Source: Bacilli bacterium | GTDB lineage: Bacteria; Bacillota_I; Bacilli_A; RF39; UBA660 | Length of the DNA stretch: 64,000 nt | Direction: 5' to 3' | NCBI GenBank assembly: GCA_017433415.1 | Contig: JAFRHI010000027.1 | Span: forward strand, 20,615-84,614 | Shown: in pieces, positions 11,549-27,631 of the stretch | How the letters are laid out: each line of letters opens with the position of its first letter | How positions within the stretch are numbered: position 1 is the stretch's first letter | The notes under the pieces: model-generated | The model's database searches: none | Told to the model about the DNA's origin: nothing | What the model saw: only the letters and a program-made list of their open reading frames with translations | Program-made: the position numbers and the translations under genes

Positions 11549-11566
11549 TATAGAAAAGGAGAGCAA

Positions 11567-11848: not shown

Positions 11849-11850
11849 AA

Positions 11851-12066: not shown

Positions 12067-12083
12067 ATTTTTTTAGTTTAAAT

Positions 12084-12111
12084 GTCTACTATTGTGGACA
12101 AAAGAAAGGAT
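12084..12111 (+). promoter_or_regulatory. conserved 28-nt block, copy 1: imperfect palindrome GTCTAC-TATT-GTGGAC plus SD
   Basis: tgtctactattgtggacaaaagaaagga ends 8 nt before the ATG of the XRE gene; 27/28 identical to 15564..15591. Confidence 0.55.
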
Positions 12112-12119
12112 AAAAATTT

Positions 12120-12497
12120 ATGAAAAATAATTATAGTTTTATTGCTGAAGTATTTAGAAAAAGAAGAGTTGAATTAGGTTATAGTAAAAGAAAACTAGCA
12201 GCCATTATTGGAATTAGTGATACAGAAATATCAAGAATTGAACATGGTGAAAGAGAAAACTACAATTTAGTTACATTAATAAAATTATGTGAAGTTTTAA
12301 AAATAGACTTTATTCATTTGCTAGTATTAGCTGGTTATCTTCCATCAGATCAAATTAATAACGAGGATAATATAACAGAAATGGAATCATTGTTAGATGA
12401 TGAATGTGATGATATTAATGATGAAGAATGTGATGCTTGTCCATTATGTGAACCAATAGAAATTATTATAACTTTAGTATCTGGGAGGGATAAATAA
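12120..12497 (+). CDS. XRE-family helix-turn-helix transcriptional regulator
   Basis: 125 aa; HTH signature LGYSKRKLAAIIGISDTEISRIEHGER; acidic C-terminal part with C-x7-C-x2-C-x2-C. Confidence 0.75.
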   Translation: MKNNYSFIAEVFRKRRVELGYSKRKLAAIIGISDTEISRIEHGERENYNLVTLIKLCEVLKIDFIHLLVLAGYLPSDQINNEDNITEMESLLDDECDDINDEECDACPLCEPIEIIITLVSGRDK

Positions 12498-12835
12498 TGG
12501 ATATTTTAATAATTAGTAATGAGAATAATATTCTTCATATTTTTAATGATGGATATAAATGTGATTATACAATCTATAATTCAAAAGGTCATAACATGGA
12601 TGGTGGTGTATTAGATTTTGATGAAAAAGTATCTAATAAAGAATCAACAGATGAGATTATAAAAATGATTCAAGATAGATTTTTATTTAATGCACCATAT
12701 ACTTGTTTATCTGGTGATAAAGCACAAAATTTATTAGAGCTAATTGAAATGGAAGATTATAAAAATTTACAGCACCAAATAGAGAATAAGTCAGTAAATA
12801 ATAAAGAAGTAAATGATATAGAAATTAATATTTAA
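12497..12835 (+). CDS. hypothetical protein (tail NDIEINI)
   Basis: 112 aa; start overlaps the upstream stop (taATG). Confidence 0.5.
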   Translation: MDILIISNENNILHIFNDGYKCDYTIYNSKGHNMDGGVLDFDEKVSNKESTDEIIKMIQDRFLFNAPYTCLSGDKAQNLLELIEMEDYKNLQHQIENKSVNNKEVNDIEINI

Positions 12836-12852
12836 TAGAAAAGGAGAAAAAT

Positions 12853-13434
12853 ATGAGAAAATTTTATGATGATTTTATTCAACAAAAACCAAAAGAAATG
12901 TCAAAGACGCTTGAGGATATAGTTTTTAAATATACTAATCCTGAAACGCATCAACCAACAAAAGTTCCTGCTTCTCACTTTGAAAAAGAATTTGGACAAG
13001 AAGTAGAAAGGGCAATTAGCCAATCAGTTAATAGACAATTTTTAACAATTATGTATGGACAATTAAATGCTTTAAAGAAAGATAATGAACAACTTTTTTA
13101 TCAAGCTTTAATATGTATTGATAACAATTTAAATCCAAAAGATTTAAGACTATCAGAACAAATCGCAATAAATCATACTTATGATTATATTCAAGATAAA
13201 CAAAGAACTGAGAAAAAAGAATTCCATTTCTTCAATCAAGAAATATCTAATGAATATCATAGAGCAATCACAGATCCTAATATTCAAGCAGAGGCAATGG
13301 AAATATCTAATTTTCTTGAAAATCAAGAATCAATTGAATTAAATCGTATAAAACAGGATACTGAACAACAACTTAATTCAAATTCTAATAATGAATATGA
13401 AATGGAAAATGACGATATGGAAATGGATTATTAA
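12853..13434 (+). CDS. hypothetical protein (tail DDMEMDY)
   Basis: 193 aa; SD aaaggag. Confidence 0.5.
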   Translation: MRKFYDDFIQQKPKEMSKTLEDIVFKYTNPETHQPTKVPASHFEKEFGQEVERAISQSVNRQFLTIMYGQLNALKKDNEQLFYQALICIDNNLNPKDLRLSEQIAINHTYDYIQDKQRTEKKEFHFFNQEISNEYHRAITDPNIQAEAMEISNFLENQESIELNRIKQDTEQQLNSNSNNEYEMENDDMEMDY

Positions 13435-13455
13435 TTTATATGAAAGGAGATTTGT

Positions 13456-14472
13456 ATGTATAGTAAAATAGAAAACTTTTTATTAGATGTAAAGGCAAAT
13501 GATGAAGTCTTTGATTATCAACAAAAAGAGTATAAACTTCATAAAGAGCATTATGATGATAGATTTGATCTTTTATATATTAAAGAAAATCAAAACACTT
13601 TAAGACAAAATCGCAGTTATTATAATTTGTGTGGTTATTATGATAACAAAGACCATTGTATATATAATGCTGAAAATTTTTTAACTGATAAAATACAAGA
13701 AAGTGATGTTATAAGGTTTGACAGATTTGATAATTTAAATCAAAAAATTTTAAATGAAGTAAAACAATATATAAATGACTATTGTTTTGCTCACGAAAAA
13801 GATTTAACTAAATTAGCTCAAGAAAAATATGATACAAAGGATGATACAAGATTATTTGAATATAAAAAAGAAATTAATAAACTTTTTATTACTAAGGATA
13901 ATCCAACAGCAGATTTAACAATCTCAATCAGTAATTATGACATTGATTATGATAATAATATTATTTCATATTTAAATAATCCAAAAAAAGCAATAGAAGA
14001 AATATCTAAAAGATTTATTGAAAGAAACGGAAAAAGTTATGGATTAGAATTATTAATTTATCATGATAAGGTAAGCTATTTAAAAGAATTACAAGAGAAT
14101 AAAGATAATGCTTATGACAATATACATTCTTGTAAAAAAATTCTAGATGCTATTAAGTATGTAGATGCTAAAACAGTTAATATTACAATTCAATATGGTG
14201 AGAAGAGTTTAACATTTAAATATGAACTTGATGATTTAAGAAGTGCATTATCAAGTGGTAAAATGGAAACTTCAACTTATAATAATGGATATGGAATAGT
14301 ATCAGAATTTGTTAAAGCAAATGATCCAAATATTACTGATAAGAATCAATGGAGATGTCCATTTTCAATTCCTACAATTAGTTCTATAACAAGTGGTAGA
14401 AACGAAATATATTCCAAAGAAACCCCAAGCATTGAAAAAGAAGTAGAAGAAGATTTGGAAATAGAAATGTAA
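13456..14472 (+). CDS. hypothetical protein, paralog 1 of a tandem pair (tail EEDLEIEM)
   Basis: 338 aa; colinear similarity to 14494..15549, including an identical 19-aa block DAKTVNITIQYGEKSLTFK. Confidence 0.6.
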   Translation: MYSKIENFLLDVKANDEVFDYQQKEYKLHKEHYDDRFDLLYIKENQNTLRQNRSYYNLCGYYDNKDHCIYNAENFLTDKIQESDVIRFDRFDNLNQKILNEVKQYINDYCFAHEKDLTKLAQEKYDTKDDTRLFEYKKEINKLFITKDNPTADLTISISNYDIDYDNNIISYLNNPKKAIEEISKRFIERNGKSYGLELLIYHDKVSYLKELQENKDNAYDNIHSCKKILDAIKYVDAKTVNITIQYGEKSLTFKYELDDLRSALSSGKMETSTYNNGYGIVSEFVKANDPNITDKNQWRCPFSIPTISSITSGRNEIYSKETPSIEKEVEEDLEIEM

Positions 14473-14493
14473 TTTAAGGGGTGATAATTAAAT

Positions 14494-15549
14494 ATGGATA
14501 TAGAAAGATTTCTTTTAAACTCTGATGTTAATGATTTAATTTTTGAAGGTACTTATAATCATCAAAAAATTCATAAAGAAAAATTTGATGATAGATTTGT
14601 AGTTATATATACAAAAACAAATCATAGTTATTTATCACAAGATAATTATGAAGTAGCTGGATATTTGGATACAAAAGATAGAGTATTATATGATTGCACT
14701 TATTATCTAAATGAATTATTACCTAAAGAAAAGAATTTAATTAAACAAAGTTCTTTTGGCGTTTTAGGTGAAAAACTATGGAATGAAATAGAGGATTATA
14801 TTGAAAAATATTCTTTTGCAAATGAAGATAAACTAAAAGAAATCGCTACTGAAAAATATGACAATTTAGAAGATTATAGAAAAGAAGTTTACAAACGAGA
14901 TGTCAGGCAACAATTTGTTCAAGAAATGAAACCAATAATAAAACTTCAAAGATCATATTCCAGTTATGAGTTTACTAATCTTCCAGAGTATAGAGGTCAT
15001 TATATAGATGTGGAATATTTAAATAGTCCTCAAGAAACTGTTGAAAAATATTCTAATAAAATAATAGAAACTATTGATGATTATAGAAATAATAAAGAAA
15101 ATTTAGGATTAGAATTATTAATCTTTCGTGATAAAATCAAATATTTAGATGTTATAAAAGATAATAAAAATAATGAATTCAAGGATCTATATATTAAAAG
15201 AGAAATATATAATTCTATCAAAGATATAGATGCTAAGACAGTTAATATTACAATTCAATACGGTGAGAAGAGTTTAACATTTAAATTTGATTATAGTGCA
15301 TTAAAGAGAGATTTAACAAATGATAGTAAAGGTAGCTGTGGATATGGTAAATCGTATGAAGAAGTATCAAATTTTATTAAGGAGAATTCTGATAAAGAAG
15401 TGAATAGATGGACAGAAGACTTTAATTTTTCAAATATAACTTCTATTACCTATGGAAAGAATGAATTATATCATCACGATTTATCATCTTCAAAAAATAT
15501 GGAAGAAGATATTCAGGAACAAGAGGAAGACATTGAAATAGAAATGTAA
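14494..15549 (+). CDS. hypothetical protein, paralog 2 of a tandem pair (tail EEDIEIEM)
   Basis: 351 aa; see paralog 1. Confidence 0.6.
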   Translation: MDIERFLLNSDVNDLIFEGTYNHQKIHKEKFDDRFVVIYTKTNHSYLSQDNYEVAGYLDTKDRVLYDCTYYLNELLPKEKNLIKQSSFGVLGEKLWNEIEDYIEKYSFANEDKLKEIATEKYDNLEDYRKEVYKRDVRQQFVQEMKPIIKLQRSYSSYEFTNLPEYRGHYIDVEYLNSPQETVEKYSNKIIETIDDYRNNKENLGLELLIFRDKIKYLDVIKDNKNNEFKDLYIKREIYNSIKDIDAKTVNITIQYGEKSLTFKFDYSALKRDLTNDSKGSCGYGKSYEEVSNFIKENSDKEVNRWTEDFNFSNITSITYGKNELYHHDLSSSKNMEEDIQEQEEDIEIEM

Positions 15550-15563
15550 TATTTTACTCAAGG

Positions 15564-15591
15564 TGTCTACTATTGTGGACTAAAGAAAGGA
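15564..15591 (+). promoter_or_regulatory. conserved 28-nt block, copy 2
   Basis: tgtctactattgtggactaaagaaagga ends 7 nt before the TTG start at 15599. Confidence 0.55.
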
Positions 15592-15598
15592 GGATTTA

Positions 15599-15979
15599 TT
15601 GATAAATAAAGAGAATAAGTGGTTAGATTTTATTGCAGGAATAAATACAATCATGGTATCTAATGAAGAAGAATTTAATAAGTTTCGGAAATTCTTAGAT
15701 GATTTGGGTATAGGAAAAATATTAAATGATTATAGAACATTTTCAGATTGGCAGCATTTATCTGAAATAAATAATAAGAATCCAAATTATATTGTTTTTG
15801 AATTTCAAATAACAAAAGGTTTGACATTTGGATATACAAAAGAATCATCTAAAGATTGGTTTGGCGTAGAACCATTAAATGTTAAAGATTTGGAATCGTT
15901 TTATAAGAATAGTAAATTATTAAGTATGAAATTTGAAAAGAAAAATGAATTAGATTTAGATGAAGAAATAGAAAAATAG
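15599..15979 (+). CDS. hypothetical protein (TTG start; tail LDEEIEK)
   Basis: 126 aa; SD aggagga upstream of the TTG. Confidence 0.5.
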   Translation: MINKENKWLDFIAGINTIMVSNEEEFNKFRKFLDDLGIGKILNDYRTFSDWQHLSEINNKNPNYIVFEFQITKGLTFGYTKESSKDWFGVEPLNVKDLESFYKNSKLLSMKFEKKNELDLDEEIEK

Positions 15980-15995
15980 AAAAGGAGAAATTTAT

Positions 15996-16367
15996 ATGTT
16001 TAATCAAACTTTACTTGTAGGTAGAATTGTAGCAAATCCAGAAATAAGACAAACAGAAGCAGGAAAAAATTATGCTAGTATTACAATAGCAGTTCCAAAA
16101 CCATACACCAATGAAGAAGGAGTTCATGAAGCTAATTTTATAGATTTAACAGCGTGGAATGATAGGGTAGTAAAAAAATCAGATCATTTATTAAAGGGTG
16201 ATTTAGTTCTTATCGAAGCATCAATACAAACTAGATTAGTAGAAAAAGATGGACAAAAAATTAAATATACTGATATTGTTGCTGATAATATTAATTATTT
16301 AAATCATAGCAAAAACCAAGACAAAACATTACAAAACGATGAGGTTGAAGAGGAGATGGATATATGA
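15996..16367 (+). CDS. ssb: single-stranded DNA-binding protein
   Basis: 123 aa; OB-fold N-terminus MFNQTLLVGRIVANPEIRQTEAGKNYASITIAV; acidic C-terminal tip EVEEEMDI. Confidence 0.8.
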   Translation: MFNQTLLVGRIVANPEIRQTEAGKNYASITIAVPKPYTNEEGVHEANFIDLTAWNDRVVKKSDHLLKGDLVLIEASIQTRLVEKDGQKIKYTDIVADNINYLNHSKNQDKTLQNDEVEEEMDI

Positions 16368-16567
16368 TAATTAGAGATGATATTGAACTTGAAATAGTAT
16401 ATTCAAAAGAAGAAAAAATTGTTTATATTGGTACACCTTCATCTTCTGGTGCTAAGTATAAATGCGAAACAATTGATGATTTAAAAAAATCAATTGATAG
16501 TTATATTGAAAGCTATGTAGAATATGATAAAATTCCAACACATGAAGATATTGAAATAGATAAATAA
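16364..16567 (+). CDS. hypothetical protein (tail EDIEIDK)
   Basis: 67 aa; ATGA overlap with ssb; GGAG SD lies inside the ssb tail. Confidence 0.5.
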   Translation: MIIRDDIELEIVYSKEEKIVYIGTPSSSGAKYKCETIDDLKKSIDSYIESYVEYDKIPTHEDIEIDK

Positions 16568-16570
16568 TTA

Positions 16571-17128
16571 ATGAAAACTAGAATTTTTATTGATATGGAT
16601 GGTACTCTTGCTGAATGGAGAGATATAAAATCAAATAGTGAACTTTATGAAAAAGGTTATTATGAATCTTTAAAACCTAATAATTTTTTGTTAGAAGAAG
16701 TAAAGAATCTTATTAAAGAGGGAAAGGATATTTATATTCTTTCTTCTTTTTTAAGTGATAGTAATTATGCTCTAAAAGAAAAAAATCTTTGGTTAAATAA
16801 ATATCTTCCAGAGTTACCAATTCAAAAAAGAATTTTTGTTCCTTATGGTGATGTTAAATATAAGTATTTACCAAGTAAGATAACAGCGTTTGATTATTTA
16901 GTTGATGATCATACAAAAAATCTTCTTGATTGGAAAGATGCAGGAGGAACTGGAATAAAGTTTTTAAACGGAATAAATCATATTAAAGGAGTGTGGCAAG
17001 GATTACTTTTAAGAGAAGATGAAGATATATCTAAGAATTTTAACTGGATTCTTGATAATTGTTTTAAAGAACCTATAAAGTCTTTTGAATTTCAAAATTT
17101 AGAAGAAGATTTAGAAGTGGAAATATGA
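16571..17128 (+). CDS. HAD-superfamily 5'(3')-deoxyribonucleotidase (NT5C-like)
   Basis: 185 aa; HAD motif I FIDMDGTLAEW; length and layout resemble NT5C-type enzymes; tail EEDLEVEI. Confidence 0.6.
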   Translation: MKTRIFIDMDGTLAEWRDIKSNSELYEKGYYESLKPNNFLLEEVKNLIKEGKDIYILSSFLSDSNYALKEKNLWLNKYLPELPIQKRIFVPYGDVKYKYLPSKITAFDYLVDDHTKNLLDWKDAGGTGIKFLNGINHIKGVWQGLLLREDEDISKNFNWILDNCFKEPIKSFEFQNLEEDLEVEI

Positions 17129-17340
17129 AAGGAGAATATAAATTGAATAAAGCATTAGAAAAGAAAATTGAAAAATTAGAAGGTTTAAAAAAGAAGGAAT
17201 TAGAAAAAATAGATGCGATTAATGTTGTAATATCTGACTATGATAAGCAATTAAAAGTTTTATATGATTATAAAAAGCAACAAGAAAAAATTTATCAAAT
17301 GCAACAAGATCTTGATACCAAAATTTTAGGAGATAAATAA
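17125..17340 (+). CDS. hypothetical coiled-coil protein
   Basis: 71 aa, Lys/Glu heptad-like sequence; ATGA overlap upstream. An in-frame TTG at 17143 after aaaggag is an alternative start. Confidence 0.45.
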   Translation: MKGEYKLNKALEKKIEKLEGLKKKELEKIDAINVVISDYDKQLKVLYDYKKQQEKIYQMQQDLDTKILGDK

Positions 17341-18284
17341 TGAATTTAGTTCGTGAAAAAATATCTCCGAACGGATATAGAAGATTAAATGTTGATATAA
17401 ATATTCAAGAAAATGAAGAACCTAACCACGATAATGTGTTTTGGTATGGAGGAGAAGTAGCAAGTATAAAGTCTTCAGAAGGAGAATATAAAATTGTTGC
17501 TAGAGGAATAGTATCGTGTAATTTAATTGCAAAAAAAGATTATATAATGCCTGATGGTGAAGAAATAAAAGCAGGTAATATAATAGCTCATGTTAAAGAT
17601 AAAAATGAAGTAGGAGCATTTAAAAAAGAAATGTCATTATATATAAAAAATGACAAAGAATTATCTGATATTATATATAACAAACACAAATTATTTAAAT
17701 TAGAAGTTGATAATAATAATTGGTTTGAATTGTCTTTTTATAATAATGAAGGAGAAATTGAGTATGATGATGTTATGAGTTCATTGTATTTAAAAGATGC
17801 AGTAGAAGAAGTTTTAGATATGATTTGGGAACAAAATAAAGATAATAAATTATATTCAATTTACTGTCGTGTAGCAAATTCAGATGGTGGAACATTAAAT
17901 GCAATAAAAAGCCAAATCGATAAATGTTTATATTCAATCAATCAAAATGCTAAAGGAAATACAGAACTAATTAGAATTTATTTTGATAGATGTTCTGGAT
18001 TAAAGAATCATGAAAAAGCATTTGGAAAAGCATTAGAAGATATAAAGAATAATAAGACACTAGATTTATATTCTGTTAATATTTCACGATTATCAAGAGA
18101 TGTAAAAAGAATGATAGATATAAGGGAAATATTAAAAGATAGTGAATCAGATATATTTGTTGTTAATGAAAATGCTTATGTATATAAAGAATTATTTAAT
18201 CAAATTACCATTCCAATATTTTATGAAATGACAGATAAAGAAATAGCTGAAGAACCTGAAATGGATGAAATAGAATATGAGTAA
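17340..18284 (+). CDS. unknown N-terminal domain fused to a resolvase-like (serine recombinase catalytic) domain lacking the nucleophile Ser
   Basis: 314 aa. The C-terminal half aligns by eye with gamma-delta resolvase: YCRVANSD (vs Y-x-RVS-T), FDRCSG (vs D-K-ASG), ISRLSRD (vs LDRLGRD). The catalytic Ser position is Ala. Confidence 0.6.
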   Translation: MNLVREKISPNGYRRLNVDINIQENEEPNHDNVFWYGGEVASIKSSEGEYKIVARGIVSCNLIAKKDYIMPDGEEIKAGNIIAHVKDKNEVGAFKKEMSLYIKNDKELSDIIYNKHKLFKLEVDNNNWFELSFYNNEGEIEYDDVMSSLYLKDAVEEVLDMIWEQNKDNKLYSIYCRVANSDGGTLNAIKSQIDKCLYSINQNAKGNTELIRIYFDRCSGLKNHEKAFGKALEDIKNNKTLDLYSVNISRLSRDVKRMIDIREILKDSESDIFVVNENAYVYKELFNQITIPIFYEMTDKEIAEEPEMDEIEYE

Positions 18285-19224
18285 ACTTCCTAAAACAAGA
18301 CAAGAATTAATTGATATGTATATCAAAAGTTTAGAGGAAGGAAATATTCCATGGGAGCAAATGTGGAAGACTTCCATTCCTGAAAATGCTATTTCTGGAA
18401 TAAAATATAGAGGTGTAAATAATTTATATTTATCATACATTGCATATAAAAGAGGATATAAAGATAATAGATGGATAACATTTAATCAAATGGGAAAAAA
18501 GCATTGGAAGTTTATTAATTCTGCAAAAGGTCAAGGTGTACCAGTAGAATGGTGGGCAATGAAAAATAAAAGAGATAATAAGATAATTAGTTTTGAAGAA
18601 TATAATAAAATAATAGAAGAAAATCCAGATAAAGAAAAAGAATTTAAAATAAGTAAAATGAGTTATACAGTTTTTAATGGTGATTTAGTTGATGGATTAG
18701 TTAATGATAAAGTAGAACAAAAACAAGAAATTATTAGCAATGATTATATTCAAAATATTATTGATAATATTGGTGTAGGATATAAAGAAGAAGGAGAAGA
18801 AGCTTATTATAGTCCTTCTAAAGATATGGTTGTTTTACCACCATCAAATAGTTTCAAAACAAGCAATTCTTATTATGCTACACAGCTTCATGAACTTGCT
18901 CATTCAACAGGACATGAAACAAGATTAGCAAGAAATCTTAAAGATCATTTTGGAACAGAGGGTTATGCTAAAGAAGAATTAAGAGCAGAGATTAGTTCTT
19001 CTTTTTTAATGCAAAAGTTTCATCTAGAAGAAGATACAAGACATTTAAATAATCATAAAAGTTATGTTAAAAACTGGTTAGAAATATTAAAAAACAATCC
19101 ACAAGAATTATTTAATGCAATAACTGATGCTAATAAAATTGTTGATTATTTAGAAGAAAATAGTATTAAAAAAGAGAAAAATCAAACCATTGATTTAGAA
19201 CAAGAAATGGAGATGGATATATGA
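18277..19224 (+). CDS. ardC: ArdC-like antirestriction protein (ssDNA-binding N-domain + zincin metalloprotease domain)
   Basis: 315 aa; N-terminal ...EEGNIPWEQMW...YRGVNNLYL...; C-terminal HExxH QLHELAHSTGHE. Confidence 0.8.
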   Translation: MSKLPKTRQELIDMYIKSLEEGNIPWEQMWKTSIPENAISGIKYRGVNNLYLSYIAYKRGYKDNRWITFNQMGKKHWKFINSAKGQGVPVEWWAMKNKRDNKIISFEEYNKIIEENPDKEKEFKISKMSYTVFNGDLVDGLVNDKVEQKQEIISNDYIQNIIDNIGVGYKEEGEEAYYSPSKDMVVLPPSNSFKTSNSYYATQLHELAHSTGHETRLARNLKDHFGTEGYAKEELRAEISSSFLMQKFHLEEDTRHLNNHKSYVKNWLEILKNNPQELFNAITDANKIVDYLEENSIKKEKNQTIDLEQEMEMDI

Positions 19225-19562
19225 TTGAAGAATTTAATAAAATAAAAGAATATTCGGCATCATTTAATAATTATAATATTTATGATTATTGTTTCTTCAT
19301 AGGATTAACAAATGTAAAAGAAAATATACCTAATGATGAACTTGAATTATTAATAAAAAAATGTGGAGAAGTTCATAGTGATTATACAGATCCAATTGAA
19401 TTAGGTCAATCACTTGCAAACGAAATATATACAGAAAAAAATATAACAATAGATGATATAAAGTCATTGACGGTGGATGAATTCTATAACTGGTACGATG
19501 ATGGAAGAGAAGTTGGAAATCCAATTGAAATAGATTCTTTAGATGAAAGGGAGATTGATTAA
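19221..19562 (+). CDS. hypothetical protein (tail LDEREID)
   Basis: 113 aa; ATGA overlap with ardC. Confidence 0.5.
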   Translation: MIEEFNKIKEYSASFNNYNIYDYCFFIGLTNVKENIPNDELELLIKKCGEVHSDYTDPIELGQSLANEIYTEKNITIDDIKSLTVDEFYNWYDDGREVGNPIEIDSLDEREID

Positions 19563-19563
19563 T

Positions 19564-19896
19564 ATGAATGTATTCTCTATATATAAAGCAATGCCAGAAG
19601 TTCATAGAAATAATTTAAAATCTTATTATATTCTTGAAGGAATATATGATTGTTTTCCTGATATAGCTGAAGAAGATGCTAAATTTATTCATAACATTTC
19701 ATTAAAAGTTGAAAATGAAAATATAAATCCTTATTCAATTTCGCATTATTTGACAGATCATTATACAAGAGGAAATATAACAAAAGAAGATTTAGAAAAA
19801 GCATCCTCTGGTGAAATTTGTGAAGCAGTATATTTTAATAATTTAGATTATATGAATTTAGAAAAAGAGTTAAATGAGGAGGAAAAAGAGATATGA
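19564..19896 (+). CDS. hypothetical protein (tail EEEKEI)
   Basis: Track ORF starts at 19543. The ATG at 19564 follows SD agggag and sits 1 nt after the upstream stop. Weakly similar to the preceding ORF (NITKEDLEKAS vs NITIDDIKSLT). Confidence 0.5.
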   Translation: MNVFSIYKAMPEVHRNNLKSYYILEGIYDCFPDIAEEDAKFIHNISLKVENENINPYSISHYLTDHYTRGNITKEDLEKASSGEICEAVYFNNLDYMNLEKELNEEEKEI

Positions 19897-20291
19897 AATC
19901 ATATAAATCAGATAGAAAAAATAATAAAAAAGCGATTAGAAAAATTCAAAAATTAATTGATTCTTCAAAATTAAATCCTTTTATTTTATTTCATTATACA
20001 GCTCTAAAAGAATCAGAATTAGAAAGTAATAGAGAATCAATGGTAAGTTTAATTAAATATAATAATAAGGTTATTTCACAATTAAAAGAAGAAATAAAAG
20101 ATAAAAATATTTGCGAAGTTCATAAAGAAATTGTTAAAAAATATATTGATGAATTGGAGTATTCTAATGGAACTTCTAAGGAAGTTATTAGAATAATAAA
20201 TCTTAAAAAAAGAGAATTTTATCATAAAAAATTACAAAAAAATTACAATAAATTTTTCAAAAAAAATACTAAACTGTCAGCGACTATTTAG
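19893..20291 (+). CDS. hypothetical basic protein adjacent to the candidate oriT
   Basis: 132 aa, Lys-rich; ATGA overlap upstream. Confidence 0.5.
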   Translation: MKSYKSDRKNNKKAIRKIQKLIDSSKLNPFILFHYTALKESELESNRESMVSLIKYNNKVISQLKEEIKDKNICEVHKEIVKKYIDELEYSNGTSKEVIRIINLKKREFYHKKLQKNYNKFFKKNTKLSATI

Positions 20292-20406
20292 TGGGTTTTA
20301 GGGATATTCCCTAACAAGCTTAGGGGTGTGTCAACACCATGCTTGATAGATTATATTTCTATACTCTGTAAGGGGTACTTTCTACTGAAGTTAGAAAGGA
20401 GCAAAT
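20292..20406. other. candidate origin of transfer (oriT)
   Basis: 115-nt, relatively GC-richer intergenic region just upstream of the relaxosome genes. Hairpins: ttaggga-tat-tccctaa (20298-20314); aagc..ggtgt-gtca-acacc..gctt (20316-20344); ctttcta-N7-tagaaag (20378-20398). Confidence 0.45.
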
Positions 20407-20967
20407 ATGGAATTTAAAGTTCAGGAAAAGTGGAGAGTACAGCAAAAATTTAATATGAGTGATAAGCAGATAGATATGGCAATAAAAAAGATGATAAAAA
20501 GACATCCGTTAGAAGAATGGATAGATGAGAGAATAGCATCAAATGGTCAAAGAGTTGTATATTTTAAATTAGAGTTTGTTGAATGGTTAAGAGATGTATA
20601 TTCAAATGGAAAAAAGTATTATTTAGATTTGGATATAGAATTTTTCAAAAGACAAATTTTACGATTAGAAAAAGAACTAGGTATCCCTCATAAAGAGCTA
20701 GAGTATAATCCTATGACGGTTAGAGAATTGTCTGTTTTTTTTGATAGAAGCATTAATACAATATATGTAGCATTAATTCGTATGAGAAAAAATAATTTTT
20801 CTCAACAATATTTAGATGATGGAAAAGTTTTAGTTTCAAAAGAAGGAGTTAAATGGTTAAGTGAAAATTATTTTCGTACTTCATATTTAGAAAATTTAGA
20901 ATTATATAAATTAGATCTTCAAGAAAAGAAAAGGATAATGTATGAACAATCAAGACGAAAAATATAA
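20407..20967 (+). CDS. putative DNA-binding protein, possible relaxosome accessory factor
   Basis: 186 aa; two internally similar segments (...GQRVVYFKLEFVEWLRDVY / ...DGKVLVSKEGVKWLSENYF); HTH-like MTVRELSVFFDRSINTIYVALIRMRK; position between oriT and mobC-like gene. Confidence 0.35.
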   Translation: MEFKVQEKWRVQQKFNMSDKQIDMAIKKMIKRHPLEEWIDERIASNGQRVVYFKLEFVEWLRDVYSNGKKYYLDLDIEFFKRQILRLEKELGIPHKELEYNPMTVRELSVFFDRSINTIYVALIRMRKNNFSQQYLDDGKVLVSKEGVKWLSENYFRTSYLENLELYKLDLQEKKRIMYEQSRRKI

Positions 20968-21742
20968 CAAATTAAGAAGACAAAAGATTAATGTGATGCT
21001 TAATGAAGAAGAACGAAAAATAATTAAAGAAAAAGCTATTAAGTATGGCTTTGGAGATTGCTTAGCTGAATATATAAGAGCAGCCTGTATATATGAAAAT
21101 ATTTATATTGAGGATGTTCATGGAAAAGAAAAAGTTTGCAACAAGGTTAGTGAATATATAAAAGAATTGAGAGAAATATTAAATGCTCAAAGAAAATTAA
21201 TGAAAAATGTTTTTCTGACAAAAGATGATATTGATAAAATAAAAAATCAAAATCAACAAATCATAGAAAAGATAGGCAGATTATCAAGAATAATAATTTC
21301 TTCATTGTCTGTTGTTTCGGAAAAGAAAATTCAACAAAGAATTAATATGATAGAAAAATATGATTCAGATAAACTAATACCTAAGATACAAATAGCTGGT
21401 GAATGGGGATTGGTGTTAAGACCTTCTAATTTATATCATCCTAATGAACCAGCTATATATATTGTTTTTCTACCAGAATACTATGATGAAATTGAAATCA
21501 ATAATTTTGATCCAGATAAGTTTAAAGAAAAAATTGATAACTATCGTCATATTGCTATGAAAAAGGAATTATATATTTCTATATATCATTTCAATGACAA
21601 ATTAAGATATGGTATTGTGATGCCTTTTGTAGATAAAGAATCAGCAACAAAATATGCAGAAGAAATGGAAGCAGATTATGTCTATGATTTATATAGTCAG
21701 CAAGTTGAAATGGATGGTGATATTTATTCCAGCAACAGCTAG
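20942..21742 (+). CDS. MobC-like relaxosome protein with long C-terminal extension
   Basis: 266 aa; N-terminal RRQKINVMLNEEERKIIKEKAIKYGFGDCLAEYIRAA resembles the MobC/RHH mobilisation signature; directly upstream of the relaxase. Confidence 0.55.
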   Translation: MNNQDEKYNKLRRQKINVMLNEEERKIIKEKAIKYGFGDCLAEYIRAACIYENIYIEDVHGKEKVCNKVSEYIKELREILNAQRKLMKNVFLTKDDIDKIKNQNQQIIEKIGRLSRIIISSLSVVSEKKIQQRINMIEKYDSDKLIPKIQIAGEWGLVLRPSNLYHPNEPAIYIVFLPEYYDEIEINNFDPDKFKEKIDNYRHIAMKKELYISIYHFNDKLRYGIVMPFVDKESATKYAEEMEADYVYDLYSQQVEMDGDIYSSNS

Positions 21743-23402
21743 ATGGTCAGTGCACGGAGTGAAGGGAAGAATTGATTGTATTAACTATATTAAAAATCCA
21801 GATAAAACAAAAGACGGAACTTTAGTAACTGGAATAAACTGTTCTTCAGAATTTGCAGCTTATGAGATGCAGATAAATAGTCAAAAATTCCGTATTGAAG
21901 AAGACAATGATAGTAGAACTTGCTATCATGCTTATCAATCATTTGATCCGAAAGAGAAAAATTTAACTCCAGAAGAAGTGCATCAAATGGGAATAGAACT
22001 GGCTAAGAGATTATACCCTGATTTTCAAGTAGTAGTATGTACTCATGTAGACCATTTGCATTTGCATAATCACTTTTGCATATCAGCAGTAAATCTAAAA
22101 GGTAGAAAACTAGAAGACAGATTATCAAATCCTATTGAAGGTTTATATGGATTAAGAGATGTAAGTGATCAGATTGCATTAGAACACGGACTTCATATAA
22201 TTAAAGACGCTCCTAAGATTGGACATTATCATAAGAATAAATACTTATATGATATTGCTAACAAATCTTGGAGGCAACAAATTATAGAAATGATTGATAC
22301 ATTAAAAGATAGATGCTATTCATTTGATGAGCTATTAGAACAACTTGCTTTAGAAGGATATTTAATTAAGCATGGTAAAAATATTCGTATAAAACCTTAT
22401 GGCAAAGAAAGATATGTAACAATGAAAATATTAGGTGATGATTATAGTGAAGAAGCATTAAAACTATTTTTTAGAGAAAAGAGAAAAAATCAAAAGGTTA
22501 TTAATTTTGGAGAATATAAATTAAATGTGAATGATAGTGATATTTTAAATATATATGATCAATTAGCAAGACTATCAAAACATTCAGTTTTATATACTAT
22601 GCAAGATTTGGATTTAAATTCAGATTATTACAAATATTATAATTCTCGCTATTTAGAAGTTAAGCGTTATCATCAATTAGTAGATACTATTAATTTTTTA
22701 AATAATCACGAAATATACAATTATGATTCATTAGAAAATCAAATAGACCAAATAAAGAATGAAATTGAAGAAAGGGAAGAAGAATATCATTCTTTATTAT
22801 CTAAACACGAAACATTACAATTAAGAGTTCCATTATGCAATTTATATATTAAATATTTAGATGATTATAATGGATACTTAGAACAACAAGATATATATCC
22901 AGTTGATGCTGAACTACCTAATGAAGTAAAAGCTTTTTTAGATGTAAAAGCAGAATTGAATGTTGATACTCCTGAAGAAGTAGAAGATATTATCTCAGAA
23001 GCGAATAAGATGAAAATTGATATGAATAAAAAATATGCTTATTTATCTTATTTAAAAAACAAAGCTAGTGAATTAGAGAAAATAAAAGGAATTTCATTAG
23101 AGAACGAAAAAGGATATATTAAAAGTATATCTATTAGTAAAAAGATGATTGATGAAAAACGCTCATCATCAGATGAATATTGTGTCCGTATTCCATATAG
23201 TGAATACTTTTTTTATGTTCCTAAAAAAAGTGTTGCATGGATTAGTTATGACACTAGAGGAATTATTTATTTGGTAGATGATAAAGAGTATATATTATAT
23301 GATCAGTATGATAAAGAAGTAGAAAGAGTAAATGGAGAAGAAGTGGAAAAAATATCACAGGAAGAAAAGAAAAAAGTAAACGAATATTATAAAGGAAAAT
23401 AA
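21714..23402 (+). CDS. MobA/VirD2-family conjugative relaxase
   Basis: His-rich motif HVDHLHLHNHFCISAVN; CYHAYQSFDP motif. The track ORF begins at 21654 inside the upstream gene; ATG 21714 (MVIFIPATARW...) is more plausible. Confidence 0.8.
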   Translation: MVIFIPATARWSVHGVKGRIDCINYIKNPDKTKDGTLVTGINCSSEFAAYEMQINSQKFRIEEDNDSRTCYHAYQSFDPKEKNLTPEEVHQMGIELAKRLYPDFQVVVCTHVDHLHLHNHFCISAVNLKGRKLEDRLSNPIEGLYGLRDVSDQIALEHGLHIIKDAPKIGHYHKNKYLYDIANKSWRQQIIEMIDTLKDRCYSFDELLEQLALEGYLIKHGKNIRIKPYGKERYVTMKILGDDYSEEALKLFFREKRKNQKVINFGEYKLNVNDSDILNIYDQLARLSKHSVLYTMQDLDLNSDYYKYYNSRYLEVKRYHQLVDTINFLNNHEIYNYDSLENQIDQIKNEIEEREEEYHSLLSKHETLQLRVPLCNLYIKYLDDYNGYLEQQDIYPVDAELPNEVKAFLDVKAELNVDTPEEVEDIISEANKMKIDMNKKYAYLSYLKNKASELEKIKGISLENEKGYIKSISISKKMIDEKRSSSDEYCVRIPYSEYFFYVPKKSVAWISYDTRGIIYLVDDKEYILYDQYDKEVERVNGEEVEKISQEEKKKVNEYYKGK

Positions 23403-23416
23403 GGAGATGATAAAAA

Positions 23417-24157
23417 TTGAGTATTGCTAAAAAAATGAATTATTATTTTAAAGGATTAAAAGAACCACCAAAGTTTGTATATAACGCTGAAGATAGAAAA
23501 CTATTTGAAGAATACATTAAAGAGAATATAGGCAATTTTGATAAAGTTTATCATGAATTATATTCTCCAGATGTTCATTTAGATATTTTAATCATTCCAC
23601 CAGATTCTAAAAATAATTTTTATAAATTAGTTACAAGAGGATTAGGTGCTTATAAAATGAATGTTCCAGATGTTATAAAGGATGAAAGATTAGATAGAGC
23701 AGAATTAATTTTATATTTACCACCAGATTGGAATTTTGATTTTGAAAAAGAAGAAAATGGATGGGTTATAAGTCAAATAAAGAATATTGCTAGAACTCCT
23801 ATAATGGAAGATTCTTGGATAGGATTTGGTCATACTTTTTCTGAAGATGAGAAGGCAACAATACCATTTGCAAGTAATACAAAGTTTTCTAGTACACTTT
23901 TGCTCAACGCTTTAAATAAAGATTACGAGTTTTTAGATTTAACATTACCTAGTAAAGGTAGAATTAATTTTTATCAAATATTTCCTTTATATAAGGAAGA
24001 AATGCTATATAAACAACAAAATGGTGTAGAAGCATTGATGGAATTATTTTCCGATGAAGATCTTATTCCTGTTGTAAATATTAGTAGGAAAAACTACTGT
24101 GATGACTTAATAAATAAAAATATAGAAAAAGAAGAGGAGAACGAAATAGAGATATGA
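23417..24157 (+). CDS. SUFU-like (suppressor-of-fused family) immunity-type protein
   Basis: 246 aa; TTG start after aaggag; ...YKLVTRGLGAYKMNVP...AELILYLPPDWNFD...WVISQIKNIARTP... resembles bacterial SUFU-like domains; tail EENEIEI. Confidence 0.5.
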   Translation: MSIAKKMNYYFKGLKEPPKFVYNAEDRKLFEEYIKENIGNFDKVYHELYSPDVHLDILIIPPDSKNNFYKLVTRGLGAYKMNVPDVIKDERLDRAELILYLPPDWNFDFEKEENGWVISQIKNIARTPIMEDSWIGFGHTFSEDEKATIPFASNTKFSSTLLLNALNKDYEFLDLTLPSKGRINFYQIFPLYKEEMLYKQQNGVEALMELFSDEDLIPVVNISRKNYCDDLINKNIEKEEENEIEI

Positions 24158-24444
24158 AATATTTAGATAACGAATTAGATTTAATTGATCATATTCTATA
24201 TAAACACAAAATTTATGATATAAATCTAGAATATGATGATGACAATAATATAATTGCTTATGATGAAGATAATAAATGGAAAGGCAAGGAATTCTATGAT
24301 TTCTTATATGATGAAGTCTTTGTTTATAATAGTCATGGCATGGTTGATTTATTAACTAGAGAAGAATTAAGACATTTAGATGAATATAGAAAGAAATATG
24401 AAATATCGAATGAAAAAGAACTAAATGAGGAGATAGAAAAATAA
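24154..24444 (+). CDS. hypothetical protein (tail NEEIEK)
   Basis: 96 aa; ATGA overlap upstream. Confidence 0.5.
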   Translation: MKYLDNELDLIDHILYKHKIYDINLEYDDDNNIIAYDEDNKWKGKEFYDFLYDEVFVYNSHGMVDLLTREELRHLDEYRKKYEISNEKELNEEIEK

Positions 24445-24446
24445 AT

Positions 24447-25187
24447 ATGAAAAAAATAAAAATACTTTTTTTATTAGTATTATTATCTTCCTTGATATAC
24501 TGTGCATTTAGAATATATAAAATATACAAAGAAGAAAAAGATGCAGTAGATATTAAAGAAGAATTAATTGAGTTAATAGATATTCCTGAGATACCACCTG
24601 AAGAACCATCATTTAGTGTTGACTTTACTGAATTAAAAAATATCAACCCAGATGTTGTTGGTTGGATTGTAGTTGAAGGAACACAAATTAATTATCCTAT
24701 TGTTCAAGGAAAAAATAATTCATTTTATTTAAATCATTCCTATGATAAGAAATGGAGTGGATTTGGAAGTATTTTTATGGATTATAAATCCTCATCTGAT
24801 TTTACTGATTACAATACTTTTATATATGGTCATCACACGAAAGATGGTTCAATGTTTGGCGAATTATATAAATATTTGGATGAGGGATTTTATAATGCTC
24901 AGCCATTTTTTTATTTATATACTCCTACTAAAAATTATAGAGTAGAAGTATTTAGTGCTTATGTTAATAAGAGTGACTCCGATTCATATAAAGATAAATT
25001 CTCTTCAATAGATGATTATCAAATGTATTTAAATTATATAATTGATAAAAGTAATTACAAAACAAATACCAAGATTGATGTCAATAAAGATAAAATAATT
25101 ACATTATATTCTTGTTCAAGAGAAGGTAATTGGGCGAAAAATGACAGGTATTTTATACATGGAAAACTCATAGATTTAAACGAGTAG
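24447..25187 (+). CDS. sortase (class B-like), ICE-encoded
   Basis: 246 aa; N-terminal TM; His motif FIYGHH; Cys motif IITLYSCS. Paralogous to the chromosomal ORF 54563..55549. Confidence 0.75.
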   Translation: MKKIKILFLLVLLSSLIYCAFRIYKIYKEEKDAVDIKEELIELIDIPEIPPEEPSFSVDFTELKNINPDVVGWIVVEGTQINYPIVQGKNNSFYLNHSYDKKWSGFGSIFMDYKSSSDFTDYNTFIYGHHTKDGSMFGELYKYLDEGFYNAQPFFYLYTPTKNYRVEVFSAYVNKSDSDSYKDKFSSIDDYQMYLNYIIDKSNYKTNTKIDVNKDKIITLYSCSREGNWAKNDRYFIHGKLIDLNE

Positions 25188-25212
25188 TGCTATTGCAATG
25201 AAAGGAGATTAA

Positions 25213-25332
25213 ATGAATAAACAATTAAATATTAATTTATATTTTGATGATAAAGGTGAAGATATTAAAGAAGTGTTAGCTCGTGATTTTAAAGAGTTTT
25301 TGAATAGCTATATTAAAAAAGTTTTAAAGTAG
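25213..25332 (+). CDS. small ORF (39 aa) upstream of the recombinase, not in the supplied track
   Basis: ATG at 25213 preceded by aaaggag; MNKQLNINLYFDDKGEDIKEVLARDFKEFLNSYIKKVLK; stop TAG 25330-25332. Confidence 0.35.
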   Translation: MNKQLNINLYFDDKGEDIKEVLARDFKEFLNSYIKKVLK

Positions 25333-25372
25333 TTTTAAGAAGTAGAAGTATTTAGAAGTAAATATTCAAATA

Positions 25373-25464
25373 AGGATTCATTTTTATACTTCTCGTGTTA
25401 TAATAATATTGTAACAAGTAGTTATGAGAGATGGTCTTTAAAATGAATCCTCCAATTATGGAGG
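25373..25464 (+). promoter_or_regulatory. recombinase leader: extended -10 promoter flanked by a 12-nt inverted repeat, plus an SD-sequestering hairpin
   Basis: aggattcatttt (25373-25384) / aaaatgaatcct (25440-25451); TGnTATAAT at 25396-25404; cctcca-atta-tggagg (25449-25464) pairs the SD of the recombinase gene. Confidence 0.45.
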
Positions 25465-25473
25465 AGGAATGAT

Positions 25474-27114
25474 ATGAACTTTGATAGTGCTTCATTAAAA
25501 AACTTATTGAGCATTTATTCACCTGAAGAAATAGCTAAATATATAAGACTGTCTTTGGCTGATGAATATAATCAGAATGATGAAAGTGAGAGTGTTGCCA
25601 ATCAAAGAAGATTATTAAATGAATTTATTGATAGGAATGGAAATGTTGGAGAAAAGTGTAAAGAATTTATAGATGATGGATGTTCTGGAACTAACTTTGA
25701 AAGACCTGGATGGCAAGATTTAATGTCAGAAGCTGAAAGTGGTAAGATAAAAGTAATCATCACCAAAAACCTTTCAAGACTTGGAAGAAGTAATTTTGAG
25801 TGTGGATATTTTATAGATTATTACTTTCCTACAAATAACATTAGATATATTGCTGTTCAAGAACAAATAGATACAGCCAATCAAGAAAATTCTAATAATG
25901 AATATGCTGCATTAAATAACTTTATAAATGAAAAGTATTCAAGAGATTTATCAAAGAATATTAAGAAGGTTTATAAGATTAAGCAATATGCTGGTGAATA
26001 TATGGGAGGACATCCTATATTTGGATATGCAAAAGATCCTAATGATAAACACAAGTTAATTATTGATGAAGAAGCAGCAAAAATTGTAAGAAGAATTTTC
26101 TCATTATATTTAGAACACCGTTCTCAAAATAAAATCAGAACTATTTTCAGTAATGAAAAAATACCAATTCCAGAGGTTTATAAAGGTTCGAGAAGAGGAC
26201 TTAAAGCAAAACAACCCTATGAATGGAATTACAGAACTATAAGAGATATTCTAAGAAATGAAATGTATATTGGTAATATGGTACAAAATGTTTTTTCAAA
26301 GAAAAGTTTTAGAGAAAAGAAAATGACAAAAAATAAAAAAGAAGACTGGATAATAGTTGAAGGAACACATGAACCAATTATTGACAAAGAAACATTTTAT
26401 CAAGTTCAAGAATTATTGGATGCGAATTATAGACAACCTGTAAAACCATATCCACACGAATTTGCTGGATTATTATACTGTCATGAATGTGGTCATAAAA
26501 TTGGTATAGGAAATGTTAAAAGGGATAGGGATGAAAGTAAACAATATTTTTACACTTATTGTAATTATTATAGAAAGAATAGTGCTTATAATAAATGTTC
26601 ACCACATTCTTTAAACTATAATAATTTAGAAGCTCAACTATTAGATATTATAGATGACTTATGTAAGAAATTTATTAAGCAATTAGATTACGACACATTG
26701 GTTAATGAAAGAAAGCAAGGTCTTAATACTTATAGCGATACTTTAATAAAGAAAATTAATAAACTTCATATTGATGTAAAAGAAATAGATCTTAAAATTG
26801 AAAAGATCTATATGGACAGACTTGATGATATTATATCAGCAGACACTTATAAAAAAATGAGTGAAAAATTGGAATCAAAAAAAGCAGAATTAATTAGCGA
26901 AACAAACGAATTACAAAAAAGTTATGATGACTATATGGAAGATAATTCCGTAGAAAAAGTTTTGGAAACAACTAAGATTGTAAAAGAGTATATGAAAGCA
27001 AGAAAAAACGAGAAGAGAGATTTGTTGCTAAAAATAGTGGATAGAGTAGAAATATATCAAGACAAAACAATTGATGTTCATTTTAAACTCAAACCACTAG
27101 GAATTACAATGTGA
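25474..27114 (+). CDS. large serine recombinase (ICE integrase/excisionase)
   Basis: 546 aa; resolvase domain YIRLSLADE, DDGCSGTNFERPG, NLSRLGRS; recombinase domain; Cys-rich zinc ribbon CHECGHK...CNYY...C; C-terminal coiled coil. Terminal gene of the element. Confidence 0.9.
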   Translation: MNFDSASLKNLLSIYSPEEIAKYIRLSLADEYNQNDESESVANQRRLLNEFIDRNGNVGEKCKEFIDDGCSGTNFERPGWQDLMSEAESGKIKVIITKNLSRLGRSNFECGYFIDYYFPTNNIRYIAVQEQIDTANQENSNNEYAALNNFINEKYSRDLSKNIKKVYKIKQYAGEYMGGHPIFGYAKDPNDKHKLIIDEEAAKIVRRIFSLYLEHRSQNKIRTIFSNEKIPIPEVYKGSRRGLKAKQPYEWNYRTIRDILRNEMYIGNMVQNVFSKKSFREKKMTKNKKEDWIIVEGTHEPIIDKETFYQVQELLDANYRQPVKPYPHEFAGLLYCHECGHKIGIGNVKRDRDESKQYFYTYCNYYRKNSAYNKCSPHSLNYNNLEAQLLDIIDDLCKKFIKQLDYDTLVNERKQGLNTYSDTLIKKINKLHIDVKEIDLKIEKIYMDRLDDIISADTYKKMSEKLESKKAELISETNELQKSYDDYMEDNSVEKVLETTKIVKEYMKARKNEKRDLLLKIVDRVEIYQDKTIDVHFKLKPLGITM

Positions 27115-27128
27115 TATAGATGATTGCC

Positions 27129-27151
27129 ATGGTGATAATTTTTTTATCACC
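27129..27151. repeat. perfect palindrome TGGTGATAA-TTTTT-TTATCACCA overlapping repeat copy 1
   Basis: Read directly; 15 nt after the recombinase stop. Candidate recombinase binding or att half-sites. Confidence 0.6.
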
Positions 27152-27160
27152 AACGGTAAT
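27139..27160 (+). repeat. 22-nt direct repeat, copy 1 (ttttttatcaccaacggtaatc)
   Basis: Identical to 27199-27220; start-to-start spacing is 60 nt. Confidence 0.9.
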
Positions 27161-27187
27161 CGGTAATGTGCTTACTATTAGTGATAA

Positions 27188-27631
27188 ATAGTAATATATT
27201 TTTTATCACCAACGGTAATCACTCATGATTTTAATGGGACTAAAACTGATAATCAAATAAATATTAATGGTAGTTATGATGTTAATATTTGGTATTCTTA
27301 TGATAATGATACAAAAACAGATGTTGTTAGAGAAACTAATACTTATAATGAAGTAATAAAAATGCATAATCGAGAAGATGTAAGTGGAGAGGAAGTTATT
27401 GTTAGAAGTTTGAGACAACCTAATTGTATAAAAGTAGATATAGATGGTAATAGAATTAATTATGTAGTCGAAAAGGAATTGGGTATAGAATTAGTTGGTG
27501 ATATAAAAGTAAAGATTGAAGCTAATATGGATGAGGATCCATGGGATGAAATTGTTGAAGAAGAAACAGAAAAAAATATAGAAGAAGGCGTTAATTCTGT
27601 TGATGAAAATTTTATTTCTGAGACGTTATAA
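27188..27631 (+). pseudogene. cotE: cotE 3' portion (outer spore coat protein E), split by the ICE; ~35 N-terminal codons missing
   Basis: The translation ...SPTVITHDFNGTKTDNQININGSYDVNIWYSYDNDTKTDVVRETNTYNEVIKM...EVIVRSLRQPNCIKVDIDGNRINYVVEKELGIELVGDIKVKIEAN...acidic tail...ENFI matches B. subtilis CotE from recall. In-frame stop at 27185-27187; no start or SD. Confidence 0.8.
27199..27220 (+). repeat. 22-nt direct repeat, copy 2; lies at the ICE/cotE junction (candidate attR core)
   Basis: In the cotE frame it encodes F-L-S-P-T-V-I, colinear with CotE residues ~35-41. Confidence 0.9.

Follow-up and report, generated by a model that had tools for sequence, protein, structure and literature searches.

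Among the programmed DNA rearrangements of bacteria, the rejoining of split sporulation genes by a recombinase is a classic example. The split targets described so far are sigK, spsM, spoVFB or spoIVFB, spoVR, gerE, kamA and yabG, and the described carriers are prophages, prophage remnants and the non-viral element gin. The pairs closest to the present case are SPbeta in spsM of B. subtilis, skin in sigK of B. subtilis and C. difficile, and gin in gerE of Bacillus cereus, in each of which a large serine recombinase (LSR) carries out the reaction. In C. difficile skin, the LSR is driven by sigma-A, and a small recombination directionality factor (RDF) that sigma-E and SpoIIID regulate confines excision to the mother cell (PMC5025042). 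Here we describe a locus in which the split gene is cotE and the intervening DNA an integrative and conjugative element (ICE). It lies in a stretch of 64,000 nucleotides of contig JAFRHI010000027.1 from a gut "Bacilli bacterium"; this whole stretch is called the window below.

The element is inserted at codon 43 in the coding sequence of the coat morphogenetic gene cotE, a sporulation gene of the mother-cell type; in B. subtilis, cotE is expressed in the mother cell. We hold this structural description of the split gene and of the element in it to be nearly certain. Its main parts in the window are the following.

1..27225, + strand: right-hand 27.2 kb of the ICE of about 67.3 kb, recognized by gene content; the left end and attL lie outside the window
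25474..27114, + strand: LSR, 546 aa, with Pfam Resolvase, Recombinase and Zn_ribbon_recom domains
27192..27225, no strand: attR, consisting of the P arm TTTATCACCAACGGTAATCACT and the crossover dinucleotide CA (27224-27225), from comparison of attL, attR and the intact site
27224..27631, + strand: 3' part of cotE, codons 43-177 and the stop codon, from Pfam CotE, the alignment of homologues and the in-frame join

Translation of 27185-27631 gives a TAA stop (27185-27187), then IVIYFLSPTVITHDFNG...DVNIWYSYDNDTKTDVV...LRQPNCIKVDI...VVEKELGIELVGDIKVKIEAN...ENFISETL and the terminal stop. An initial annotation made from the letters alone had read 27188-27631 as a CotE fragment in a frame closed by this TAA, with the LSR gene ending 74 nt upstream. 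All of this holds: the product matches Pfam CotE (PF10628; E=2e-30), and the match spans positions 37-176 of the 177 in the profile. The same annotation had the gene resume at 27188 with about 35 codons missing. The gene is indeed truncated, but 42 codons are absent from the window, and cotE-derived DNA begins only at the His43 codon CAT (27224-27226), the preceding 12 codons being element DNA of the P arm. The public annotation of the gene (P0001, 'outer spore coat protein CotE', 147 aa) starts at the ATA that follows the stop, so that element DNA encodes the first 12 residues, and the truncated gene is annotated as though it were complete. Exact look-ups with P0001 and with the first ORF of the window matched no contig.

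A query with the C-terminal part of CotE retrieved the 177-aa CotE P0002, which is 99% identical, together with many full-length relatives, and the intact homologues P0002-P0006 align with the 3' part. For the 5' part, tblastn gave no match across the 64-kb window. A query with the N-terminal 42 residues retrieved 68 clusters of short proteins, the best of which, P0121, has 51 aa and consists of MTNY...CWVINH (43 CotE codons) followed by LITFSDKL and a stop. It is the 5' half of the window cotE, and so the fragment predicted for the other end of the element does exist, outside the window: P0121 maps to ENA scaffold_150 (109,168 bp), which belongs to an independent assembly of the same strain, about 67 kb upstream of the 3' half, and this scaffold also holds the LSR and 21.6 kb at 100% identity to window positions 15474-37114. 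Window DNA recurs, moreover, in a Logan contig and several ENA contigs, which are independent assemblies. Joined in silico at the CA, the two halves give 534 nt in frame, coding for a CotE of 177 aa with a single difference from P0002, N160S. The whole of the PF10628 profile is thereby accounted for, by the 3' part (positions 37-176), a precomputed match on the 5' fragment and the joined 177 aa. Because the 5' fragment exists, the 3' product matches the CotE profile and the join is in frame, the interpretation offered initially is supported. A locus that lacks the element was also available for comparison: in a related species (L001), cotE is uninterrupted and followed by the same gene order as in the window, namely methyltransferase-like, rpsP, KH protein, uppS, cdsA, rseP and priA.

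The sequence at attL is ...GGTTGTTGGGTAATTAATCA|TCTCATTACCTTTAGTGATAAACTC and that at attR is ...TTTATCACCAACGGTAATCACTCA|TGATTTTAATGGGACT. The overlap common to both is only 4 bp, TCAT, with the CA central. The reconstructed attB is GGGTAATTAAT-CA-TGATTTTAATGG (junction k-mer GGGTAATTAATCATGATTTTAATGGG), and the reconstructed attP is TTTATCACCAAC-GGTAAT-CACT-CA-TCTC-ATTACC-TTTAGTGATAAA (junction k-mer GGTAATCACTCATCTCATTACC), which is palindromic around the central CA at 20 of 32 symmetric positions. By this comparison the crossover falls within the TCAT overlap in the His43 codon, and its reversal would restore an intact 177-aa cotE. A 22-nt direct repeat (27140-27161 and 27199-27220) had been proposed as the att core at which the halves should be joined. 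It had to be discarded, since both copies are element DNA; the repeat is the P arm, which recurs in an attP-like pseudo-site in tandem with the real one.

27133..27198, no strand: attP-like pseudo-site, which shares 49 of its 66 positions with the reconstructed attP (repeat family D4)

The pseudo-site is complete, lies at a 59-nt spacing upstream of the real junction and keeps both arms, its centre reading CGGT-AA-TGTG as opposed to CACT-CA-TCTC in attP. Among the relatives examined, it is present only in the window ICE. It could be the relic of a tandem or alternative att site, or else a decoy or regulatory site to which the LSR would bind.

The LSR gene ends 110 nt before the crossover. Its three Pfam domains all score above cutoff, and the catalytic serine is expected, by position, to be Ser27 (YIRLS motif, invariant in a two-sequence alignment). 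NCBIfam matches to CcrC, XisF and CcrB stay below cutoff, which places the LSR outside these named families, and the match to a PHROG integrase has E=1.7e-101. Among solved structures, TnpX and SPbeta SprA/YokA come closest (E about 1e-24). Phage LSRs reach 32% identity at best, and a scan of IMG/VR for phage carriers found no relative.

From the positions of attL (L011) and attR (L009) on scaffold_150, the element measures about 67.3 kb, and its gene content was read from all but about 21 kb of this. The conjugation-related genes in the window are as follows.

2322..4265, + strand: coupling protein (VirD4/TraG-like) of a type IV secretion system, Pfam T4SS-DNA_transf (E=1.7e-48) and TraG-D_C
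4653-5471, + strand: TrbL_2-like gene, from the precomputed Pfam match of the identical gene in L005
5473-6099, + strand: PrgI-like gene, same basis
6050..8467, + strand: VirB4-like conjugation ATPase, DUF87 and P-loop_TraG Pfam matches, identical gene in L005
8470-10353, + strand: CHAP hydrolase, from the precomputed Pfam match of the identical gene in L005
20942-21742, + strand: accessory gene with a NikA-like match, preceding the relaxase
21654..23402, + strand: MobA/VirD2-type relaxase, Pfam Relaxase (E=1.1e-27)
24447..25187, + strand: sortase (Pfam Sortase), the final gene of the ICE backbone

Genes for a single-stranded DNA-binding protein (SSB) and ArdC are also found upstream of the LSR on the + strand. 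The left end carries genes for a 241-aa methyltransferase-like protein, an HTH_36 replication-initiator-like protein, a PemK toxin and a sigma-70-like protein, and deeper inside follow a primase, an N6_N4 DNA methylase and LPXTG-type adhesins. VirB4-type ATPase, coupling protein, relaxase and integrase thus all lie between the att sites, and the conjugation genes are full-length open reading frames (ORFs). The genes seen are conjugation and cargo genes; together with the lack of LSR relatives in IMG/VR, this speaks for an ICE and not a prophage, as the initial annotation had it. Backbones that are 84-91% identical (L034) occur in different species, which hints at transfer between hosts.

Three side observations concern the body of the element. 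AT skew is 0.11-0.18 in the ICE part (1-28000) and -0.07 to 0.08 in the chromosome (28001-64000), G+C being similar on both sides of about 28 kb, so that the shift in skew is a compositional mark of the element boundary. A gene adjoining ArdC (17340-18284) encodes a 314-aa protein with a C-terminal resolvase catalytic domain (174-293) and N-terminal 170 residues without assignment; it is kept in the sister ICE L034 at 82% identity and would, judging from its domain, be a second serine recombinase of the ICE. Finally, 13456-14472 and 14494-15549 are neighbouring paralogues of 338 and 351 aa without significant Pfam assignment, which share stretches of 72-73% identical DNA (repeat families D1 and D3).

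The cotE insertion is not peculiar to this ICE. An LSR-alignment scan with one genome per species gave 22 loci, and a scan of metagenome contigs gave five further close loci. Sorted by LSR identity to the window, they flank two genes.

At least 65% identical (window, L004, L017-L027, L038, L039-L043): flanks 3' cotE
55% identical (L028-L033, L036, L037; eight Clostridia metagenome-assembled genomes (MAGs) with the same LSR): flanks the C-terminal 580-660 codons of valS
52% identical (L034): flanks the same valS fragment
44% identical (L035): flanks the same valS fragment

LSRs with at least 65% identity adjoin 3' cotE in 18 of 19 loci, the exception being a contig (L023) that stops about 100 nt past the LSR. 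Every cotE junction is at the same CAT codon, with P arms of two classes, TATCACYAACGGTAATCAC and TATCACCAAAAACCATGACA. Three kinds of carrier can be told apart: the backbone of the window ICE (also in L039); another backbone with coupling protein, sortase and LSR (L004, L041-L043); and islands of 4-12 kb without transfer genes (L017, L020, L022, L025 and L026 with 4.0-9.7 kb, L040 with about 4.2 kb), the cargo of which comprises glycosyltransferases, an MBOAT-like protein, kinases and similar. For five species with small elements, the joined cotE is in frame and encodes 172-179 aa. Among the 68 clusters of N-terminal fragments, 48 end in a tail coded by the P' arm directly after His43, of the type LITFSDK, LLVVGDN or VLVSGDN. 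The collection has 47 blocks with one and the same 5' allele, P0182, and the element joined to it varies with the sample; the left-end pair of the window ICE (241-aa and HTH_36 proteins) has homologues in the P0182-allele elements (38% and 59% identity). Across many species of uncultured, AT-rich gut Bacilli, the recombination unit is specific to this one site in cotE.

Beside P0182, the 5' allele P0144 is likewise found, in identical form, joined to different elements according to sample (L119-L126), and the cargo there is rich in glycosyl-, methyl-, acetyl- and carbamoyl-transferases and also includes an epimerase. The cotE site looks like a docking site with fast turnover, the cargo of which might modify surface polysaccharide.

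The LSRs of the valS type (e.g. L034 11669-13411, L031 11593-13566) lie directly upstream of a C-terminal valS fragment beginning GVVKITPAHD. At the L034 junction no in-frame start codon is visible for this fragment, valS is an essential gene, and the 10 kb upstream of these LSRs yielded no 5' valS half. The fragment is either a replacement for part of valS that came with the element, or else the genome has a second valS copy. On the 1.46-Mb chromosome CP091726.1 (L038), positions 9930-12200 hold LSR, small ORF and 3' cotE with frameshifts or stops. This locus was considered as a natural control and set aside, as about four frameshifts or stops in 1.6 kb look like long-read errors and not like decay.

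One of these relatives bears on how the unit is built. The backbone of L034, which is inserted in valS, is 84-91% identical to the window in nucleotide sequence over 15486-25162, and identity then falls to 66% across the LSR (blastn). The boundary lies just upstream of a small ORF and coincides with a putative promoter that contains a CATA-type box. The recombination unit, made up of this promoter, the small ORF, the LSR and the att site, is by this comparison modular and has been swapped for a different unit in the sister ICE. Its control elements in the window are these.

25169..25177, + strand: CATA box CATAGATTT, 44 nt upstream of the 39-aa ORF, candidate -10 of the sigma-E/sigma-K type
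25213..25332, + strand: 39-aa ORF (MNKQLNINLYFDDKGEDIKEVLARDFKEFLNSYIKKVLK), a homologue of which precedes the LSR in 24 of 24 loci tested and in L039-L043
25374..25473, + strand: LSR leader region, read from the sequence and kept in related units

A homologue of the 39-aa ORF stands directly upstream of the LSR throughout the family, valS-type loci included, and its product is a candidate RDF or small regulator of the ribbon-helix-helix (RHH) type. It has no match in PHROGs, a non-significant match to an RHH protein in the PDB and a sub-threshold match to Pfam RHH_7 (E=0.014); the AlphaFold2 single-sequence model predicts an extended N-terminus and one helix at 16-38 (pLDDT 82). The initial annotation had advised a search for sigma-E or sigma-K promoters or an RDF gene, and in the CATA-type box and the 39-aa ORF there are now candidates for both, even though the RHH_7 match falls short of threshold. 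The box, CATAnnnT[TA], stands at -58 to -30 of the ORF in every cotE-type unit (18 of 18), within sequence that has otherwise diverged among these units; its background rate is 0.045 per 30 nt, and it is absent from all three valS-type lineages. It resembles the host cotE promoter upstream of the 5' fragment, AC-N17-CATATATTA, which we take to follow the B. subtilis sigma-K pattern. In SPbeta, the -10 of sprB likewise matches sigma-E/K, whereas its -35 is imperfect (PMC4191935).

The LSR leader contains an extended -10, TGtTATAAT (25396-25404), bracketed by a conserved inverted repeat, GGATTC (25374-25379) and GAATCC (25445-25450); a sigma-70 scan of the leader listed no site. It also contains a SpoIIID-box-like sequence, TGTAACAAG (25410-25418), which fits KRTAACARK, a C. 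difficile consensus (PMC5025042), and has a chance expectation of about 0.04 in the 141-nt spacer. At the level of motifs, the control layout seems to parallel those of C. difficile skin and SPbeta sprB-sprA.

The host itself is, by its genes, a spore former. The MAGs concerned are labelled "Bacilli bacterium", stem from gut samples of rabbit, goat and Hadza human, and have a G+C of 24-31%. A sigF-like gene is followed by spoVAC, spoVAD and spoVAE (51827-54313) and then by a class B sortase gene (region to 55549), and in a relative the gerA operon adjoins cotE; the sigF-like, spoVA and gerA genes are what identify it as a spore former at the genomic level.

Together, these data suggest a model in which the element is excised from the mother cell during sporulation, which rejoins cotE; on the comparative evidence and the analogues, we think this rather more probable than the alternatives discussed below. 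In the vegetative cell and the forespore, the element would stay integrated and so be inherited through the spore. In the mother cell, the sigma-E/sigma-K-type promoter would drive the 39-aa protein, which would turn the constitutively made LSR toward excision by attL x attR recombination. The rejoined cotE would then serve outer coat assembly, on the pattern of skin/sigK, SPbeta/spsM and gin/gerE. When the ICE is induced for transfer, the conjugation operon, which has the same orientation, could give the same excision signal by read-through, and such dual control would resemble that of SPbeta sprB. We favour excision in the mother cell because the target is a mother-cell gene and the split exactly reversible, because small islands without other mobility genes keep the unit intact and the site is very commonly occupied, and because the mother-cell-type box is confined to cotE-type units and the studied analogues behave in this way.

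Several observations weigh against this model, and most of them also speak for plain insertional inactivation. Under that explanation, to which we assign a clearly smaller but still substantial chance, a conserved stretch of cotE is simply a safe landing site, dispensable in growth; the element would be excised only when the ICE is induced for transfer, and the spores would lack CotE or have a defective outer coat, at a cost that is tolerated. The spores that cotE mutants of B. subtilis make remain viable, and a disruption could simply be tolerated. The target of the LSR relatives with 44-55% identity, valS, has no role in sporulation; the wider LSR family is therefore not tied to sporulation. 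Nor do the insertions seem old. In pairwise comparison, the identity of the LSRs shows no correlation with that of CotE (Spearman rho 0.008): hosts with LSRs that are 96-97% identical (L004, L021, L025) have CotE only 46-54% identical, as in L004 and L021, with 97% for the LSR and only 46% for CotE. This rules out a vertical and ancient inheritance of the small elements and means that the unit is spreading horizontally now; as the insertions are recent, the intactness of the cotE halves says little about selection, and a dN/dS argument for selection on them was set aside for this reason. The attP junction was absent from JGI metagenomes in an exact scan, and an exact look-up of the rejoined CotE protein was negative; no assembled empty site was found for the exact allele. 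Concerning control, the 18 cases of the CATA-type box are related by descent and not independent, and the 39-aa protein could be a transcriptional regulator rather than an RDF, with its match to RHH_7 below threshold. In addition, certain transposons of the conjugative or mobilisable kind have LSRs (TnpX, TndX) that are reported to need no RDF.

What speaks for excision over tolerated damage is chiefly the breadth of the pattern. The 48 fragment clusters, and P0182 in 47 blocks, are hard to square with a costly knock-out in bacteria transmitted by spores. Islands of 4-12 kb without transfer genes retain an intact LSR and small ORF, and the CATA-type box is restricted to units of the cotE type. 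In the studies consulted, the LSR elements in mother-cell genes that were tested experimentally all excise, either in sporulation or in a growth-phase-dependent manner (PMC4191935, PMC5025042, PMC5595907, PMC10747680). The initial annotation had left a choice between CotE-less spores and developmental excision, and the comparative evidence leans toward the latter. It is improbable, in our view, that the element is a frozen relic that no longer excises, with cotE permanently dead in this strain. The pseudo-site beside attR does hint at a past rearrangement, and the LSR and cotE of L038 contain frameshifts; but those frameshifts are dense and resemble long-read sequencing errors, and the window has an intact LSR and small ORF, with the two halves of cotE and the two att arms likewise intact and the conjugation genes at full length. 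The chance that the junction of ICE and cotE is an artefact of metagenome assembly or binning is negligible: although the sequence comes from a MAG and its left junction is on a contig other than that of the window, the same junctions recur in assemblies made independently (ENA, Logan and NCBI), and homologous junctions at more than 15 other loci.

If excision in the mother cell is developmental, sporulation, by which these gut bacteria are transmitted, could also govern transfer of the ICE. A bolder version, which we put forward as speculation with low odds, is that excision of the ICE would both repair cotE and make the mother cell a disposable conjugative donor, while the forespore keeps an integrated copy; excision would be wired to sporulation, and the cotE site would be a docking site of fast turnover, shared by ICEs and islands with sugar-modifying cargo. 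In gut spore-formers this would couple conjugation to sporulation, the donor being a mother cell doomed to lysis. Independently of this, the LSR with its defined attB and attP is a new site-specific integrase with known sites for use as a tool.

Among the known systems, SPbeta in spsM (B. subtilis; SprA, with SprB as RDF) is similar in that an LSR-bearing mobile element splits a mother-cell gene for the spore envelope. In both cases a small gene stands directly upstream of the integrase, next to attR, and SPbeta is still mobile, with a dual control by induction and sporulation that our model predicts here too. SprA is among the closest solved homologues of the window LSR, yet distant (phmmer E about 5e-24), and the 39-aa ORF has no match to SprB/YotN among sequences of solved structures at E up to 10. 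SPbeta differs in being a phage with spsM as its target, whereas here an ICE is in cotE and excision would be the predicted behaviour. In skin (sigK; SpoIVCA in B. subtilis, CD1231 and the RDF CD1234 in C. difficile), an LSR also lies at the junction of a split mother-cell gene, and the logic proposed here, a constitutive LSR with a small RDF under a mother-cell sigma factor, is that of skin (PMC5025042). However, skin is a defective, vertically inherited prophage, while the cotE units spread horizontally, some on ICEs that look competent for transfer. The initial annotation had regarded the known intervening elements as phages or their remnants, which is right for skin and SPbeta; gin in gerE (GirC/GirX) is non-viral, and what it essentially contains is an LSR with an RDF (PMC5595907). 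Going by this description, the cotE islands of 4-12 kb are similar to gin; gin has another target and is itself without conjugation genes.

The clostridial elements of the Tn4451/Tn5397 type also use an LSR (TnpX/TndX) as the integrase of conjugative or mobilisable elements in Firmicutes, and the catalytic domain of TnpX is the best solved-structure match of the window LSR. TnpX and TndX are reported to have targets that are relaxed or different and to need no RDF, and their elements, in contrast to ours, are not known to be linked to a sporulation gene. A literature search, of incomplete coverage and so compatible with a prior description, found no intervening element in cotE and no natural ICE as an intervening element of a sporulation gene. 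The closest precedent for an ICE driven by an LSR specific to a sporulation gene is an engineered one: ICEBs1 with the SPbeta recombination unit integrates at the SPbeta attB, so that recombination units can be exchanged between phage and ICE (Suzuki et al. 2020, PMC6957869). That construct was made in the laboratory, whereas the elements described here are natural and widespread, with the window ICE and L034 as a natural counterpart of the unit swap. New here, relative to all of these systems, are cotE as the target, natural conjugative elements as carriers, and a portable recombination unit found across ICE backbones and cargo islands.

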